From a virus: a stretch of DNA of 64,000 nt. Made by a program: the position numbers and the translations under genes. The stretch is taken from UHGV virus genome UHGV-0090252, one strand, 5' to 3'. The notes below the pieces were generated by a model. That model did not search any database and had not been told where the DNA came from. It saw only the letters and a program-made list of their open reading frames with translations. The stretch's first letter is position 1. Each line of letters opens with the position of its first letter. Positions 25,619 through 37,662 of the stretch are shown piece after piece.

Positions 25619-25825
25619 TTAGATATCGTAGTAATAAACTGCTGTCTGTCTTATGTGCTTTCTTGTATTTCTTGTAAGGTAGCAATCAGAGTTGATTGCT
25701 GTTTCTACATAGTTGCAATAGTCAGCTTCTGATATTCTAGACCATACGCCACAGATTTGCATGTAAAAACGTTTTACCTTTGTGTTAACGTTAGTTGTAA
25801 CCATCAATTCACGACCGTATAGCAT
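25619..25825 (-). CDS. hypothetical small protein (68 aa), first gene of the array
   Basis: ATG with AGGAGA RBS; upstream region is the 26060-26270 direct-repeat array. Confidence 0.5.
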   Translation of the reverse strand: MLYGRELMVTTNVNTKVKRFYMQICGVWSRISEADYCNYVETAINSDCYLTRNTRKHIRQTAVYYYDI

Positions 25826-26059
25826 TTTTAAGTTCTCCTAGTTTAAGGCTGTCGGGCTTGTCGCCCCGTCTGATGCAAATACTATAAAAACCCGTTCAAG
25901 GAGTCAATGAAAATTTTTAAAAATATTTTTGGCAAAAATGTAATGAAACGGGTGCGCGCGATTACCACAAAACAGAACTACAATCAAGAATTATTTTTCA
26001 ATCCGCTACAAATTTTTCTGTTGACTTTTATTTTCAGATGTGGTAGCCTTGTGAGAAAT

Positions 26060-26270
26060 GGCGACAGCCCCACCTACACCCACCTACCTGCACAATTCTC
26101 AAATGATTTTTCTTGCCCGACCTGATTTTTCTCTGCACGTTTTGAAAATGAAAAAGCTCTTTGGAGATTACCTGCACAGTTTGAAAATGAATTTTCTCTT
26201 TGGAGTTCAAAATTCTCTCTACAGATTTCTCTATAGAAATATACCTGCACAATTCTGAAATGAAAAAGCC
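26060..26270. repeat. array of four imperfect ~22-bp direct repeats (CCTGCACARTTYTSAAATGA) plus CCCACCTACACCCACCTACC
   Basis: copies at about 26086, 26128, 26171 and 26245 in the 500-bp non-coding gap upstream of the small-gene array. Confidence 0.6.
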
Positions 26271-26336
26271 CTCCTTACCTGAAAAATTTACCAGATAAGA
26301 AAGGCTTAGTCTATTGTGAATATCCTACGAAGTTTC

Positions 26337-27122
26337 TTAGTTCTTTGCGTCTAAGAAGGTAACTTCTGGCGAAGAGAAAACTGTCTCGATATCCTCATCA
26401 GTTCTTGCATAGATGTAGGTGTCTGCATCGCTACCAAATGTCACGGCAATTCTATGATTGCTCTTCGACAGGTGGGTAACTAGAGCGTTACTTAGAGACA
26501 TCTTTTCAACCGGAGGGTTACTTTGATGTATCTTACCTTTTCTTCGTCTGAAGAGGGTAACTGCATTATCCGTGAACACAACTACACCTGCAAAGTATTC
26601 TGGTTCACAGTAGTTCTTCCAACCTGAGCGTAACTTGTGGTACATCTCTCCTTCATAGACATACAGATAAACATCCACACTCTTCATCACCTGATTGATG
26701 ATAACTGTGACAGCTTGAGGGTCAAGTCCACCAATACCTGCACCAATCATAGGTAAACCAACTTTCTTCAACTGATTGACTTCACAGTATCTGTTAAGCT
26801 GTTTCAAAGATGACTCTAAAGCACTGTATCGTGCATCTTTACCAGTATGAAGTTGGGTGTAAAGGTTAGCTATACGACCTTGTTTTAAACGTGCTACAGA
26901 TAAATTACCTAGTAAATTTTCACAGGGTTTGTGACGAATGCCACCTGCAAACAGGTAAACTTCTGTGTCAGTATCATACACTTTTGGATAACGCTTAGAA
27001 ATAGTTGCTGCAATACCTGCACCCATGAAATTCATACAGTTGCAACCATGACCAATGATATCAAATTTACCTTTATCAAATGCTTCAAAGATATCACCTT
27101 TGATGATTTTTACAATACCCAT
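26337..27122 (-). CDS. macro-domain protein (ADP-ribose binding/processing fold) with about 100-aa C-terminal extension
   Basis: 261 aa; GDIFE, FDIIGHGCNCMNFMGAGIA and LPMIGAGIGGL match the diphosphate-binding loops of macro domains. Confidence 0.7.
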   Translation of the reverse strand: MGIVKIIKGDIFEAFDKGKFDIIGHGCNCMNFMGAGIAATISKRYPKVYDTDTEVYLFAGGIRHKPCENLLGNLSVARLKQGRIANLYTQLHTGKDARYSALESSLKQLNRYCEVNQLKKVGLPMIGAGIGGLDPQAVTVIINQVMKSVDVYLYVYEGEMYHKLRSGWKNYCEPEYFAGVVVFTDNAVTLFRRRKGKIHQSNPPVEKMSLSNALVTHLSKSNHRIAVTFGSDADTYIYARTDEDIETVFSSPEVTFLDAKN

Positions 27123-27323
27123 TTAACATCTCTCCCAAGATTCTTTATCTTCTGAAGGTTTTACACGCTGTCCTTCGTGGTCTACCCAGATGCACCCACA
27201 ACCTTCACAGATTACTGGCATTGCATAGCCAGCCTTAAAGTCATCTTCAGTGATGAGACCTTTTAAGTCACCTGTATCACGTCCGAACATTTCGATAGAA
27301 CAATCTTTGCAGAAGTCAGCCAT
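27123..27323 (-). CDS. hypothetical zinc-ribbon protein
   Basis: ORF track trimmed to internal ATG (MADFCKDC...CEGCGC) because the upstream extension overlaps the preceding ORF. Confidence 0.45.
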   Translation of the reverse strand: MADFCKDCSIEMFGRDTGDLKGLITEDDFKAGYAMPVICEGCGCIWVDHEGQRVKPSEDKESWERC

Positions 27324-27543
27324 GAATAATTGCCTCTTGAATGATAATACCTTTACCACAACGACTTTTAAAGTCTTCCAATGGTTCAGAGATGAAGCCA
27401 CGTAAGCAGTCAGTGAATACTAAGTTTTTCCTGTAAGCTATCACATCATTTGCTGTAAATGGGATGACCTCATTTCGTCCAATGAACACTGCTGACCTGA
27501 TAAGTTTTCGTGTCTTTTTATCTCTGGCTAGTATTACTTTCAT
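27316..27543 (-). CDS. hypothetical protein (75 aa)
   Basis: ORF in minus-strand run. Confidence 0.45.
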   Translation of the reverse strand: MKVILARDKKTRKLIRSAVFIGRNEVIPFTANDVIAYRKNLVFTDCLRGFISEPLEDFKSRCGKGIIIQEAIIHG

Positions 27544-29150: not shown

Positions 29151-29846
29151 TCAATGTTTTACTAACATAGTTTTAATGTGTGGAAGGATTCTGTTCACCT
29201 TCTGCACATTCTTCTCTGTATCTTCTATAAAACATACTATATCAAAGTAAGGCAGAATGCAAGACTGAATCATCCTCACTTTCAAACTTTCTGCACTTAT
29301 AGAGTTAGTCCCAAAACCACGCATAAAAAGCATGTAATCATGCTCTATGTAATGCCTTAAAAACATCTCAGTAGGTATTCTCTGAGATTCACCTCTCGCT
29401 GTCAAGAGTCCAATGGCGGCATGATTAGCAATTGCGTCAATGATGTTGAAAACATACGTTGGTTTTGCTCTTACAGAGTCAAGCAAATTAGTGTACTGTG
29501 AAAATGACCCATCAATCAATTCCATTGAGCAATCTTCGTGATTAAAATTTGTAAGAACACCATCAATGTCTGCTAAGATAAGGTTACCTTTTTCTACAAG
29601 GTCTTTATTGACTATGACTAAGCTATCACGACTTACACCTATAGTTTGTCCAGTCTCTTTATCTACAACATTCACAATTGGCTCTGATGTGTGGAACTCT
29701 TCGAGTGAACATACGACTTCTCTTGCGGTGTCTTCAAAATCCCTACACTGTTCTGGAGTACATACACAGGAATCAAGACCTAACTCATGAGGATGTAAGT
29801 CGTAAGCATGACACAGTACTTCATCAGACTTTTTTAATTTTTTCAT
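29151..29846 (-). CDS. HAD-superfamily hydrolase-like protein (possible 5'(3')-deoxyribonucleotidase) with Cys/His-rich N-terminal extension
   Basis: 231 aa; LILADIDGVLTNF resembles HAD motif I DxDGVL of deoxynucleotidases. Confidence 0.45.
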   Translation of the reverse strand: MKKLKKSDEVLCHAYDLHPHELGLDSCVCTPEQCRDFEDTAREVVCSLEEFHTSEPIVNVVDKETGQTIGVSRDSLVIVNKDLVEKGNLILADIDGVLTNFNHEDCSMELIDGSFSQYTNLLDSVRAKPTYVFNIIDAIANHAAIGLLTARGESQRIPTEMFLRHYIEHDYMLFMRGFGTNSISAESLKVRMIQSCILPYFDIVCFIEDTEKNVQKVNRILPHIKTMLVKH

Positions 29847-30372
29847 GGTTTACCTTAGAAATGTTTGTTGCAAATTCACATTGAGCAATAACTTTCATGT
29901 TGTTATAGACATCTTGAGAATATTTCTTAGCTTTAGGGATTCTGTACGAATACCCAGCATTATATGATGCTAAAACTTTTTGTAAAGTCTTCTTTGACTT
30001 TGGCTGACCATGCACCTTTGTCCAAAACTCAAGTTCTTTGTGCGTTTCCTTCGCAGCATAGTTAAAGTCTTTTAAGAGTTTCTTTTTAGCCACATTAGGA
30101 CTAATTTTGTTACGCTTTACAACAGTCTTCAAGTGATTCTGGAAAATACCATAATCATGTGTCTTTTTATTCTCTACCTTCAGACCTAACTCTGACTCTT
30201 GTAAGGCTATAGCAGCTAGAGTGATACCCCAACCTTTACCCATGTTGTTCTCACCATACTGGTAAGCTTTTAACATGTTTACTTTTTGGCTAATTGATAG
30301 CTCTGGGCAGTCAACTGCATAAGATAAGTGTGCTGTAAACATTAAGCACAAACCTAGAATCAATTTCTTCAT
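29824..30372 (-). CDS. secreted lytic transglycosylase-like protein
   Basis: 182 aa; N-terminal signal peptide; AIALQESELG ... YGIFQ resembles the catalytic ES...GLMQ region of Slt-family enzymes. Confidence 0.5.
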   Translation of the reverse strand: MKKLILGLCLMFTAHLSYAVDCPELSISQKVNMLKAYQYGENNMGKGWGITLAAIALQESELGLKVENKKTHDYGIFQNHLKTVVKRNKISPNVAKKKLLKDFNYAAKETHKELEFWTKVHGQPKSKKTLQKVLASYNAGYSYRIPKAKKYSQDVYNNMKVIAQCEFATNISKVNHEKIKKV

Positions 30373-34953: not shown

Positions 34954-36735
34954 TTAAAGCTGCTTGTCAATATTGTTTCGAATATCACCAAGAGTTGTGT
35001 AACCGAACTGCTCAGAGTCACTAAAGACTAAACGTAAAGCACAAGCTGGATGTTCAAGTGCATCTGCAAAGCTCTGGAATCCATAGCCATCTACAGCTTT
35101 CAACTTATCACCATCCCACATAGGTGCTACACCACCAAAAGCAGACTTCTTAACACCACTATCTGTTTTAGGGTCTTTTGCAAGCATAATCTCTTTACCA
35201 CCAATGCTTGCAAGAGTTGCTTTAACAGCAAATGCAAAGGTGTCACGAGTCATGTACTGGTAAGTGTAAGAGCCTACGCCAAACACTACGTTAGAGCTTG
35301 CAAAACCCATTTCATACAGACGCTTCAGTATTTCGTTTGCACGTTCCAGCGTGATAGAGTCGCCATAGATAAGACCGATATGCTCATCCAGTACCTTAAA
35401 CCCTTTAGAGTTGATAGTCCCACCAAAGATGTTGTACAGTGTCTTAATAGCTCCATCAATTTCAGCTACAGGACGTGTTACAACGTTTGCAGAGCCGTTG
35501 ATGTAAGCATCTTTCAGCAACACTGTATCGGCTACTTCAAAGTCTTCTCTGTCAACCACCATTTCATAGCCTTCTGCACGTAACCACCCAGCCATAACAT
35601 AGTTAATATCTTCAAGCTTCATGTTCAGGACGGTGCTCAACATTGTGTCACTGGCATTCTGCTTGATAAGGTGCTCGTAATAAGCCTTCTTAGCACACTC
35701 TAAGTGGATTGCTTTATAACCTGTGACAATATGTACAGGGTCTCCAGAGTCAGGGCGAATTACCAGCTTACCATCACGTTCCATAATTTCTTTACGAAGT
35801 GCTGGTAAGATTTCTGACACAGTTCTCCAGAAGTTATAAGTATCTGAAACAATACTTGCAATACCAGTTGGGTAAGTTTCTGTTAAGAAACGACGGAAGG
35901 TTTGTAACTCACCGTTAAAGCGTCTTTCCTCTTCAATCAATTCATTACCACCTTCCCAAGCGATGTTTGCACACATCACAGAGTGTTCAGTAGCTGGTAC
36001 AGAACTACCAATGTCAGAGATTGGGTAAGACTGTCCATAGATACGTTTAGCTGTGTATACAGCAGGGAAGCTATCAGTCCCTTTAAAGCTGGTTAAGTGA
36101 CCTACAGCGTTAAATGCGTCATCAGTAAAGCCGGACATACCACGCATAGCAAAGTCATGGCACTGATAAGGTAAATGTAAGTCATTGTCGCAAGTAAGGT
36201 CAGCCAACTTCTTACAGATGCGTTTGTAATGTAATGCAATAGTTGCAATGGTGCAAGCCTTCCAAATCTCAGCAGAGAAAGCATCTTCCAGATACCCTGC
36301 TACCCAATGGAAACCTGAAACAGTGTTCTGGAAGACAATCATTGGGACACGCATAGGAACAACTGTACCTTCTTCTACAGCGTATACTTCAACTGGTAGA
36401 TAGCCTAAGTCGTGAAGTGCTTCCCAATGCTCTCGACCGATAGCATCTTTACCCAGAACACCATTCATGACTTCTAAGATTTCATCAATTGCTTCTTTCT
36501 TATCACGTTCAAAGAAAGTGGCGTTCCAGTGGTCTATCAAGTAATCTTTAACAAAACGTTGAATACCAAAAGCCACTACACCGTCAATTGCTAAAGGACT
36601 GTTAAACCATTTATCACTACGTGGTGTCAGGTTGAACATCAAGTATTCTGTTGCACTAGGGTACTGGTAAACATGACCAGATTTGTAAGCATCTGCGTTT
36701 AAACCTGCTGGTACTGCATAAAGTGATTTAGTCAT
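34954..36735 (-). CDS. nicotinamide phosphoribosyltransferase family protein (NAMPT/NadV-like; candidate Namat of NARP1)
   Basis: 593 aa; N-terminal ADAYKSGH substrate-binding motif and overall NAMPT-like sequence; longer than the ~490 aa I expect for NadV; immediately downstream of a Prs-fold gene. Confidence 0.75.
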   Translation of the reverse strand: MTKSLYAVPAGLNADAYKSGHVYQYPSATEYLMFNLTPRSDKWFNSPLAIDGVVAFGIQRFVKDYLIDHWNATFFERDKKEAIDEILEVMNGVLGKDAIGREHWEALHDLGYLPVEVYAVEEGTVVPMRVPMIVFQNTVSGFHWVAGYLEDAFSAEIWKACTIATIALHYKRICKKLADLTCDNDLHLPYQCHDFAMRGMSGFTDDAFNAVGHLTSFKGTDSFPAVYTAKRIYGQSYPISDIGSSVPATEHSVMCANIAWEGGNELIEEERRFNGELQTFRRFLTETYPTGIASIVSDTYNFWRTVSEILPALRKEIMERDGKLVIRPDSGDPVHIVTGYKAIHLECAKKAYYEHLIKQNASDTMLSTVLNMKLEDINYVMAGWLRAEGYEMVVDREDFEVADTVLLKDAYINGSANVVTRPVAEIDGAIKTLYNIFGGTINSKGFKVLDEHIGLIYGDSITLERANEILKRLYEMGFASSNVVFGVGSYTYQYMTRDTFAFAVKATLASIGGKEIMLAKDPKTDSGVKKSAFGGVAPMWDGDKLKAVDGYGFQSFADALEHPACALRLVFSDSEQFGYTTLGDIRNNIDKQL

Positions 36736-36780: not shown

Positions 36781-37662
36781 TCAATCAATGGTTGCTACAG
36801 TAACTTGGGCGTAATGTGTTAAGCCACGGTCTTTAGCTTCACCTAAAGTGTTTGTAGTGTAGATATGGTCAATACCATTGTCAAGTAAGTTTTCAACACC
36901 TTTAGAGAAAATACCATGAGTTACATAGAGTTCCACACGTTTTGCACCTGCTTCACGTAGGTGTTTAGCTGCCTCTACGAAGGTTCGACCACCATCACAG
37001 ATATCATCAAGAATCATGACAGTTTTATCGGTCAAATCAACATCGTCAAGGATTCGCATACCAGTGATTTCTCCAGTCTTAAGATTGCGCACCTTAGACA
37101 TTGTGATATACGGTTTATCCACCTCTTTAGCGGTATCTTCAGTCTTCTTAGCTGCACCTGCATCTGGGGCTACCAAGAAATCAATGCGTGGGTCACTTGC
37201 AAAGTGTACTGCCACATCTTTTTGCTTCATGCTCTGAAAGCACTTAAATAAGTTTTCTGCAACATTACTGTGAGGGTCAAGAGCACATACTGCATCAAAG
37301 CCCATTGCATTAACTAGGTTGGCAAAGACTTTCAGTGCTGCTGCATCACCTTTGAACATGTGGCGGTCATATCGAGCATTTGGTAAGAACCCGAAAACAA
37401 CGGTTTTCATCGCTGATTTCTGGGGAACAAGACTGTCAACGGCATCCTTAGCCAAAGCTAATGCAAACAGTGTATCCTTGTCATATCCCTGTACAGTAAT
37501 TATAACATTATCAATCTTACCAGCATTACGCTCAGTAAACTTAACAAAATCTTCAGAGAAGTTTCCACCAATTTCTCCAGATGGGAATTGAATGATATTA
37601 AATTTTTCTGTGTGGAAGAATTTCTCTTGTGCGGTGACGACGGCTTCAATAACAGTTTTCAT
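36781..37662 (-). CDS. ribose-phosphate pyrophosphokinase (PRPP synthetase) fold protein (candidate Adps of NARP1)
   Basis: 293 aa; ILDDICDGGRTF matches the PRPP-binding loop DDxxDTGGT; adjacent and co-oriented with the NAMPT-like gene. Confidence 0.7.
   Translation of the reverse strand: MKTVIEAVVTAQEKFFHTEKFNIIQFPSGEIGGNFSEDFVKFTERNAGKIDNVIITVQGYDKDTLFALALAKDAVDSLVPQKSAMKTVVFGFLPNARYDRHMFKGDAAALKVFANLVNAMGFDAVCALDPHSNVAENLFKCFQSMKQKDVAVHFASDPRIDFLVAPDAGAAKKTEDTAKEVDKPYITMSKVRNLKTGEITGMRILDDVDLTDKTVMILDDICDGGRTFVEAAKHLREAGAKRVELYVTHGIFSKGVENLLDNGIDHIYTTNTLGEAKDRGLTHYAQVTVATID

Follow-up and report, generated by a model that had tools for sequence, protein, structure and literature searches.

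Within the window (the whole 64,000-nucleotide stretch of viral DNA analysed here), the minus strand encodes at 26337..27122 a protein composed of a macrodomain, homologous to the anti-DarT factor Tk.4 (AdfM) of phage T4, and of a C-terminal orphan domain. On balance, and by analogy with AdfM, this protein is probably an eraser of the ADP-ribose that DarT2-type toxins place on DNA, with an accessory domain for specificity. A macro or phosphatase annotation is already attached to the gene in hundreds of deposited genomes. The protein combines an AdfM/Tk.4-family macrodomain with a lineage-specific orphan domain, and the function is proposed by analogy only.

The window is the genome of a FelixO1-type myovirus (Ounavirinae, Felixounavirus). 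The 3-kb stretch around the macro gene shares 99.9% identity with Escherichia phage vB_Eco_Tribble and 92-94% identity with about 200 other phages of Escherichia, Salmonella and Shigella, including JohannRWettstein (Bas63). In Bas63, the orthologue is gene 95, annotated as a "putative phosphatase".

A macrodomain of the ALC1/TARG1/DarG-like class

The first-pass annotation of this DNA had described an open reading frame of 261 amino acids at 26337-27122. It is present on the minus strand, where it begins with ATG and runs for 261 codons up to a stop, and the motifs quoted for its product (GDIFE, GHGCNCMNFMGAGIA and PMIGAGIGGL) were all found. The macrodomain occupies amino acids 1-157 (26652..27122, minus strand) and is recognised by Pfam, by PDB profile matches and by Foldseek. 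Pfam Macro (PF01661) matches amino acids 25-141 with 30.1 bits (E = 5.2e-07), above the curated gathering cut-off of 22 bits, while PHROG 335, labelled "phosphatase", matches the protein over its full length (E = 6.9e-115). The full-length AlphaFold model (pLDDT 90, pTM 0.88) shows the three-layer alpha/beta/alpha fold of macrodomains, its best Foldseek matches being TARG1 (target TM 0.80-0.83), DarG (0.74-0.77) and Poa1p (0.72), with E-values of 1e-9 to 1e-8. The macrodomain call of the first-pass annotation is therefore confirmed, including by the structure prediction and fold comparison that it had proposed as a check.

We also built a family profile (A1) from 23 homologues and compared it with solved structures of the PDB. 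The matches were TARG1 (2e-18), SCO6735 of Streptomyces coelicolor (PDB 5E3B; 6e-15), Poa1p (1e-14), DarG of Mycobacterium tuberculosis (3e-14) and DarG of Thermus aquaticus (4e-11). Among solved structures, TARG1/OARD1 and yeast Poa1p are thus the closest in sequence, profile and fold. In the PADLOC and NCBIfam libraries, the only matches were DarG models (E = 5.5e-15 and 8.5e-15, respectively), and these cover only the macro part of the protein (amino acids 5-159 and 5-163). The NCBIfam DarG model NF048014 reaches 54.9 bits against an equivalog cut-off of 250, with model positions 2-153 of 338 matched, and the PADLOC model is matched at positions 3-146 of 329. Since the DarG matches are confined to the macro half and lie far below the equivalog cut-off, the window protein is a macrodomain of the ALC1/TARG1/DarG-like class and not a DarG. 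Like DarG of the DarTG2 systems (T. aquaticus and M. tuberculosis; PDB 5M31, 5M3E and 5M3I), with which it shares the macro fold, it has two domains, a macrodomain and a C-terminal module. However, the catalytic Lys80 of DarG faces Gln90 in the window protein, and the DarT-binding domain of DarG finds no match in the C-terminal domain, the positions of the DarG profile beyond about 150 being unmatched.

The macrodomain displays the signature motifs H25-G-C-N28-C29, M33-G-A-G-I-A38, N86-L-Y-T-Q90 and P124-x-I-G-A-G-I-G-G132. The glycine-rich loops MGAGIA and IGAGIGG, predicted to bind ADP-ribose, are present and conserved. In a tblastn search of 50,697 phage records, full-length homologues of the 261-aa protein were found in 258 records and the macro part (amino acids 3-157) in about 2,800, with many T4-like phages among the matches listed. 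About 2,500 of these 2,800 records hold the macro part alone, and the homologues of other phage groups mostly have a length of 139-180 aa, against 261 aa here. The window protein carries the family signature, i.e. N-C in the first loop, NxYTQ, and an IGxG(I/L)(G/A)G loop. In T4-like phages, the homologue is the gene tk.4, adjoining vs. Tk.4 of T4 shows 35% identity with the window protein over amino acids 3-157 of the latter (BLASTP E = 2e-23). Both belong to PHROG 335 (E = 1.3e-65 for Tk.4) and share the motifs HGCNC, MGxG(I/V)A, NLYTQ and PxIGAGIG. In contrast to the window protein, Tk.4 is a single domain of 155 aa, the additional C-terminal domain of 104 aa being absent from T4-like phages.

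Then, we compared the active site with those of the characterised relatives. In the HMMER alignments, L-I-T-K84 of TARG1 faces N-L-Y-T-Q90 of the window protein, and I-G-C-G-L-D125 faces I-G-A-G-I-G131. The catalytic dyad Lys84/Asp125 of TARG1 is therefore absent and replaced by Gln90/Gly131. Gln90 (codon CAA, 26853..26855, minus strand) takes the place of the catalytic lysine in TARG1 (Lys84) and DarG (Lys80) and, together with Asn86, Asn28 and Cys29, is invariant in 81 out of 81 family loci. Asn28 (codon at 27039..27041, minus strand), in the H-G-C-N-C motif, is also invariant in the A1 profile and, from its position in the motif, probably corresponds to the Asn in the active sites of DarG (N22) and of PhiKZ AdfM (N23). 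In SCO6735, Gln85 is the equivalent of TARG1 Lys84 and DarG Lys80, and the Q85A variant is inactive; this enzyme cleaves thymidine-linked ADP-ribose from DNA and is reported to act on protein substrates too (PMC9411070). SCO6735 and the window protein thus both belong to the ALC1/TARG1-like class and both have a Gln at the position of the catalytic lysine. The correspondence between Gln90 and Gln85 is transitive, drawn via TARG1 Lys84. As SCO6735 is active on DNA with Gln85, Gln90 is compatible with DNA de-ADP-ribosylation. SCO6735 differs in being a bacterial enzyme regulated by DNA damage, only distantly related, with a long mobile loop carrying Lys89 and Lys94.

Judging from these residues, the phage family of the window protein is of a glutamine type, distinct from the lysine-type AdfM of chimalliviruses. 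The latter (PhiKZ gp104) removes DarT2 ADP-ribose from DNA in vitro and counters DarTG2 (PMC13309987). This DarG-like protein (N23/K78) represents another lineage and enters the phage nucleus by import; our searches for homologues of the window protein did not recover it. AdfB of ICP1 was rejected as a relative, as it is a 77-aa DarT binder and not a macrodomain.

Substrate of the putative eraser

A role as an eraser of ADP-ribose modifications, suggested by the first-pass annotation, is upheld by sequence, profile and fold. Three more precise roles had been offered. Reversal of DarT-type modification gains specific support from the homology with T4 Tk.4/AdfM and from the fact that the best family models are DarG models, while degradation of ADP-ribose-derived signals and supply of ADP-ribose to the NARP1 enzymes gain little (outside the Ounavirinae, both NARP1 genes occur within 10 kb of 1 out of 54 macro loci). 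A screen of a T4 transposon library against DarTG2 yielded tk.4 as its only significant hit, and a clean deletion of tk.4 sensitises T4 to DarTG2, hence the name AdfM (anti-DarT factor, macrodomain); this evidence, reported in a preprint (bioRxiv 10.1101/2025.11.20.689424), is purely genetic.

By analogy, the macrodomain of the window protein would bind the ADP-ribose moiety and hydrolyse its bond to the acceptor. The most likely substrate would be the thymidine-linked ADP-ribose set by DarT2-type toxins on single-stranded phage DNA, and erasure would restore the templates of replication and transcription. The mechanism would be of the glutamine type described for SCO6735, where the distal ribose is positioned by Gln and water is activated; TARG1 and DarG use a lysine mechanism instead. 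The C-terminal domain, specific to the phage subfamily, would set the substrate or partner specificity, for example through a basic hairpin gripping DNA or through contact with a host protein. The phage encodes a thymidylate synthase, which we take to mean that its DNA contains ordinary thymine and can thus be targeted by DarT2.

The Bas63 orthologue is not required on laboratory E. coli, which is what an accessory counter-defence gene would show, and in this it resembles tk.4, both being dispensable accessory genes of virulent myoviruses. Dispensability is deduced from the PhageMaP knock-out library of Bas63: in the data sheets covered, the fitness scores of gene 95 are positive (+0.6 to +1.1), as are those of the NARP1 genes, against about -1 for essential genes. 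These scores hold on laboratory E. coli strains and across a panel of 33 defence systems, in which gene 95 shows no phenotype. This panel is the set of Gao et al. and includes neither DarTG nor Thoeris; the paper mentions neither DarT nor Thoeris. Bas63 was not included in HIDEN-SEQ. We also counted in favour of counter-defence that the macro gene closes an early-type block which holds NARP1 and rIIA/B. Several points count against the anti-DarT reading. At 35% identity, the window protein and Tk.4 need not share a substrate; moreover, the window protein lacks the catalytic lysine of DarG and scores far below the DarG equivalog cut-off. Furthermore, enzymes of the SCO6735 and TARG1 types act on proteins too, so that DNA is not the sole candidate substrate.

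If the anti-DarT2 reading is true, AdfM-type activity is not confined to T4-like phages but extends to the FelixO1 group, whose members find wide use in diagnostics and therapy against Salmonella and E. coli, and the glutamine-type macro active site is the standard phage solution. The orphan domain would then offer a handle on how erasers acquire host or substrate specificity, and the gene would help to predict which therapeutic phages overcome DarTG-bearing hosts.

The eraser might instead act on ADP-ribose linked to protein or RNA and not to DNA, and so counter other ADP-ribosyltransferase defences or toxins (e.g. mRNA- or protein-modifying), or it might deacetylate O-acetyl-ADP-ribose like TARG1/OARD1. 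We consider this unlikely. Macrodomains are generally promiscuous, and TARG1/OARD1 is the top neighbour of the window protein in all three comparisons (sequence, profile and fold); the activity of SCO6735 on both protein and DNA (PMC9411070) also speaks for this reading. However, the TARG1 dyad is replaced by Gln90/Gly131 and the sole phenotype of the family concerns a DNA-modifying system. Moreover, the Bas63 genome has no annotated ADP-ribosyltransferase, which argues against a self-regulatory pair like Alt/Mod of T4. It is less probable still, and in our opinion very improbable, that the protein is a sponge or eraser of ADP-ribose-derived immune signals (gcADPR or His-ADPR of Thoeris). Macrodomains can bind His-ADPR, as the type II Thoeris effector ThsA does according to the literature, and the gene is both dispensable and surrounded by counter-defence genes. 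Nevertheless, the protein has no homology to known anti-Thoeris proteins, its nearest characterised relatives are all hydrolases of macromolecular ADP-ribosylation, and its invariant catalytic-site residues fit an enzyme better than a sponge.

A last alternative is related to the neighbouring NARP1 genes. The "candidate NARP1" cassette reported about 8 kb away by the first-pass annotation is genuine: Adps (Prs-like; 36781..37662, minus strand) and Namat (NadV-like; 34954..36735, minus strand) share 99% and 96% identity with gp79 and gp80 of Bas63, respectively, the genes in which NARP1 was discovered. By this identity, the two genes correspond to the experimentally defined NARP1 pair, at 7.8 kb from the macro gene. 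The protein could then be a Poa1p-like small-molecule phosphatase or salvage enzyme that converts ADPR-1''-phosphate (from ADPR cyclic phosphate) into ADPR, and recycles decay products of the NARP1 intermediate ADPR-PP, or RNA-repair by-products, into NAD reconstitution. This would agree with the long-standing "phosphatase" annotation, derived from the A1pp/Poa1p relationship, with the rank of Poa1p among the best profile and fold matches, with the spontaneous decay of ADPR-PP to ADPR-cyclic-phosphate described in the literature for Bas63 infections, and with the strand and gene block that the macro gene shares with NARP1 and a PNK-like gene. In addition, the macro homologue of Vibrio phage Athena lies directly between Prs-like and NadV-like genes, a metagenomic phage (L079) has a NARP1-type pair 3.6 kb downstream of its macro homologue, and a metagenomic homologue (P0019) carries a cREC_REC cyclic-phosphate-processing domain. 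The Athena operon and the P0019 fusion, which count against the anti-DarT reading as well, point to small-molecule substrates for some members of the family at least.

Despite these cases, we regard such a salvage function as quite unlikely for the window protein. Most phage records of the family are macro-only, with many T4-like phages among those listed; to our knowledge, T4 and T4-like phages do not carry NARP1. The single locus in 54 with a full NARP1 pair within 10 kb outside the Ounavirinae is no more than the genome-wide NARP1 frequency of about 4.3%. The sole phenotype of the family, that of T4 Tk.4, is against DarTG2, and published experiments show NARP1 functioning as a unit of two genes. 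A general genomic link between the macro family and NARP1 was thus rejected as a rule, and it holds in the individual lineages of Athena and L079. Athena (L002, NC_055851; 4129-7135) is a T5-like vibriophage in which a Tk.4-family macrodomain is found inside a NARP1-type operon, with the Prs-like gp175, the macro "phosphatase" gp176 and the NadV-like gp177, and with RNA ligase and phosphoesterase genes nearby. In P0019 (339 aa), a Tk.4-family macrodomain is fused to cREC_REC (PF20274, "cyclic-phosphate processing receiver domain"), a fusion that hints that some family members may handle ADP-ribose cyclic phosphate.

The C-terminal orphan domain

The separate C-terminal domain of about 100 aa noticed by the first-pass annotation is real. 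It covers amino acids 158-261 (26340..26651, minus strand) and consists of one helix, six strands and a further helix at the C-terminus. Its block pLDDT values are 84-93 in the model of the full-length protein, against a mean of 78 when the domain is modelled alone. In the model, it packs onto the macrodomain directly after the last macro strand, with no long linker. It has no Pfam family, only sub-threshold matches to PH and NAC. A profile search of 1.84e9 representative proteins recovered members of this family, fragments and a single spurious repeat protein (P0028), and nothing else. The PDB sequence profile search gave no match, and Foldseek against the BFVD viral models returned its own family alone.

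Three candidate relationships were rejected. A divergent cREC_REC domain, as in P0019, has an hhalign probability of 0.2%, and the predicted topology is beta-rich and not (beta-alpha)5. Homology with the C-terminal extension of the Erwinia phage phiEa21-4 type has an hhalign probability of 0.1%, i.e. the similarity is undetectable. Finally, a DarG-like DarT-binding domain is not supported, since DarG models are unmatched past the macro part. With a pI of 6.5, the domain does not suggest an acidic DNA mimic.

The C-terminal domain is always fused to the macro part and was found in Felixounavirus, Mooglevirus and Suspvirus, as well as in a lineage with 23% identity (L025/P0009). Within the genus, dN/dS is 0.19 for the C-terminal domain and 0.06 for the macro part, and identity between genera is 48-50% and 76-79%, respectively. 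The domain is therefore a real coding domain under constraint, evolving faster than the macro part. It contains a conserved basic hairpin (F-R-R-R-K-G-K). This RRRKGK hairpin and the compact packing suggest a specificity module, and the domain would most likely determine the substrate or the partner of the enzyme.

Pectobacterium phages Wc4-1 and Arno162 carry a C-terminal extension of similar length, whose homology is indicated by a marginal profile match only, to a similar 252-aa protein (P0029; E = 9e-4). In the Ounavirinae of Erwinia (phiEa21-4 type, 36 records), a 260-aa macro protein is encoded at the same position, directly after the spanins. For instance, the macro protein of Erwinia phage phiEa104/phiEa21-4 type (L026, 8483-9265) has a C-terminal extension of about 105 aa with no detectable similarity to the Felixounavirus domain, and its first loop is QGCNC, not HGCNC.

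The domain, which evolves fast and is replaced in the Erwinia relatives, could be a toxin- or DNA-engaging module. On a more speculative view, the two-domain protein would be an independently evolved analogue of a whole DarG, combining erasure with neutralisation or targeting, with a C-terminal module swapped between phage genera that tracks the DarT or ADP-ribosyltransferase variants of the hosts. A second speculative reading would make the protein a third NARP1 component that salvages ADPR-cyclic-phosphate/ADPR-1''-phosphate. Even taken together, these two readings seem rather unlikely.

Transcription unit and downstream region

A long series of genes read in the same direction ends with the macro gene: Nrd (ribonucleotide reductases), NARP1, rIIA/rIIB, a PNK-like gene, the spanins, four small genes and the macro gene itself. 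A Shine-Dalgarno-like GGGAGAG (27130..27136, minus strand), read from the sequence, is located 7 nt before its ATG. Directly upstream, a small ORF (27123-27401, minus strand) encodes two CxxC-like pairs (CKDC ... CEGCGC). Its stop codon (27123-27125) abuts the start codon of the macro gene, which suggests that the two genes may be translationally coupled. This small ORF belongs to no Pfam family, begins at a later ATG in the annotation of Bas63 (66 aa) and does not precede the macro gene in the Erwinia relatives.

A Pfam scan of nine neighbouring ORFs found no DUF4433/DarT, the sole match being a weak one to an SLT transglycosylase in the ORF at 29824-30372. The annotated neighbourhood of the orthologue in Bas63 consists of spanins and hypothetical proteins. 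Beside the ORF with the SLT match, the ORF at 29151-29846 (minus strand, 231 aa) displays a DxDGVLT motif of HAD type and is a "polynucleotide kinase" in the annotation of Bas63; it has no Pfam match at E 0.01. Among the homologues of the macro protein, P0007 (179 aa; cluster of 15 member sequences) shares 96% identity with the window protein and then changes frame after about amino acid 168, so that the C-terminal domain is absent; the protein is either naturally truncated or an artefact of sequencing or assembly.

An intrinsic-terminator-like hairpin followed by a T run (26266..26307, minus strand) begins 30 nt past the macro stop codon. It folds with -25.8 kcal/mol (z = -6.84) and is retained across genera, with changes on both arms. 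From these features, it appears to end the transcription unit of the macro gene. The first-pass annotation had placed the gene after a direct-repeat array; as the gene is on the minus strand, this array (about 26085-26278) in fact lies downstream of it, past the terminator-like hairpin.

The array is part of a 510-nt non-coding gap (25826-26336, minus-strand reading), which is better conserved between genera of Ounavirinae than the C-terminal domain of the macro protein. The gap contains four boxes TTCATTT-N5-6-GTGCAG(GTA) and long stretches that are invariant, TCAGGTCGGGCAAGAAAAATCATTT and AAAATTTGTAGCGGATTGAAAAATAATTCTTGAT among them. Boxes and stretches alike are kept even where the macro protein has diverged to 39% identity, as it has in one phage. 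Rfam gave no family match in the repeat region and gap, and the annotation of Bas63 has two small plus-strand ORFs there. The gap may be a regulatory region, iterons or an origin, or an RNA. Just upstream of the next minus-strand gene (25619..25825), a promoter-like TTGACT-17-TAGTAT (25879-25907, minus strand) precedes the conserved TTTGCATCAGACGGG. All five aligned phages retain the TTGAC core of this promoter-like site and most of its second hexamer.
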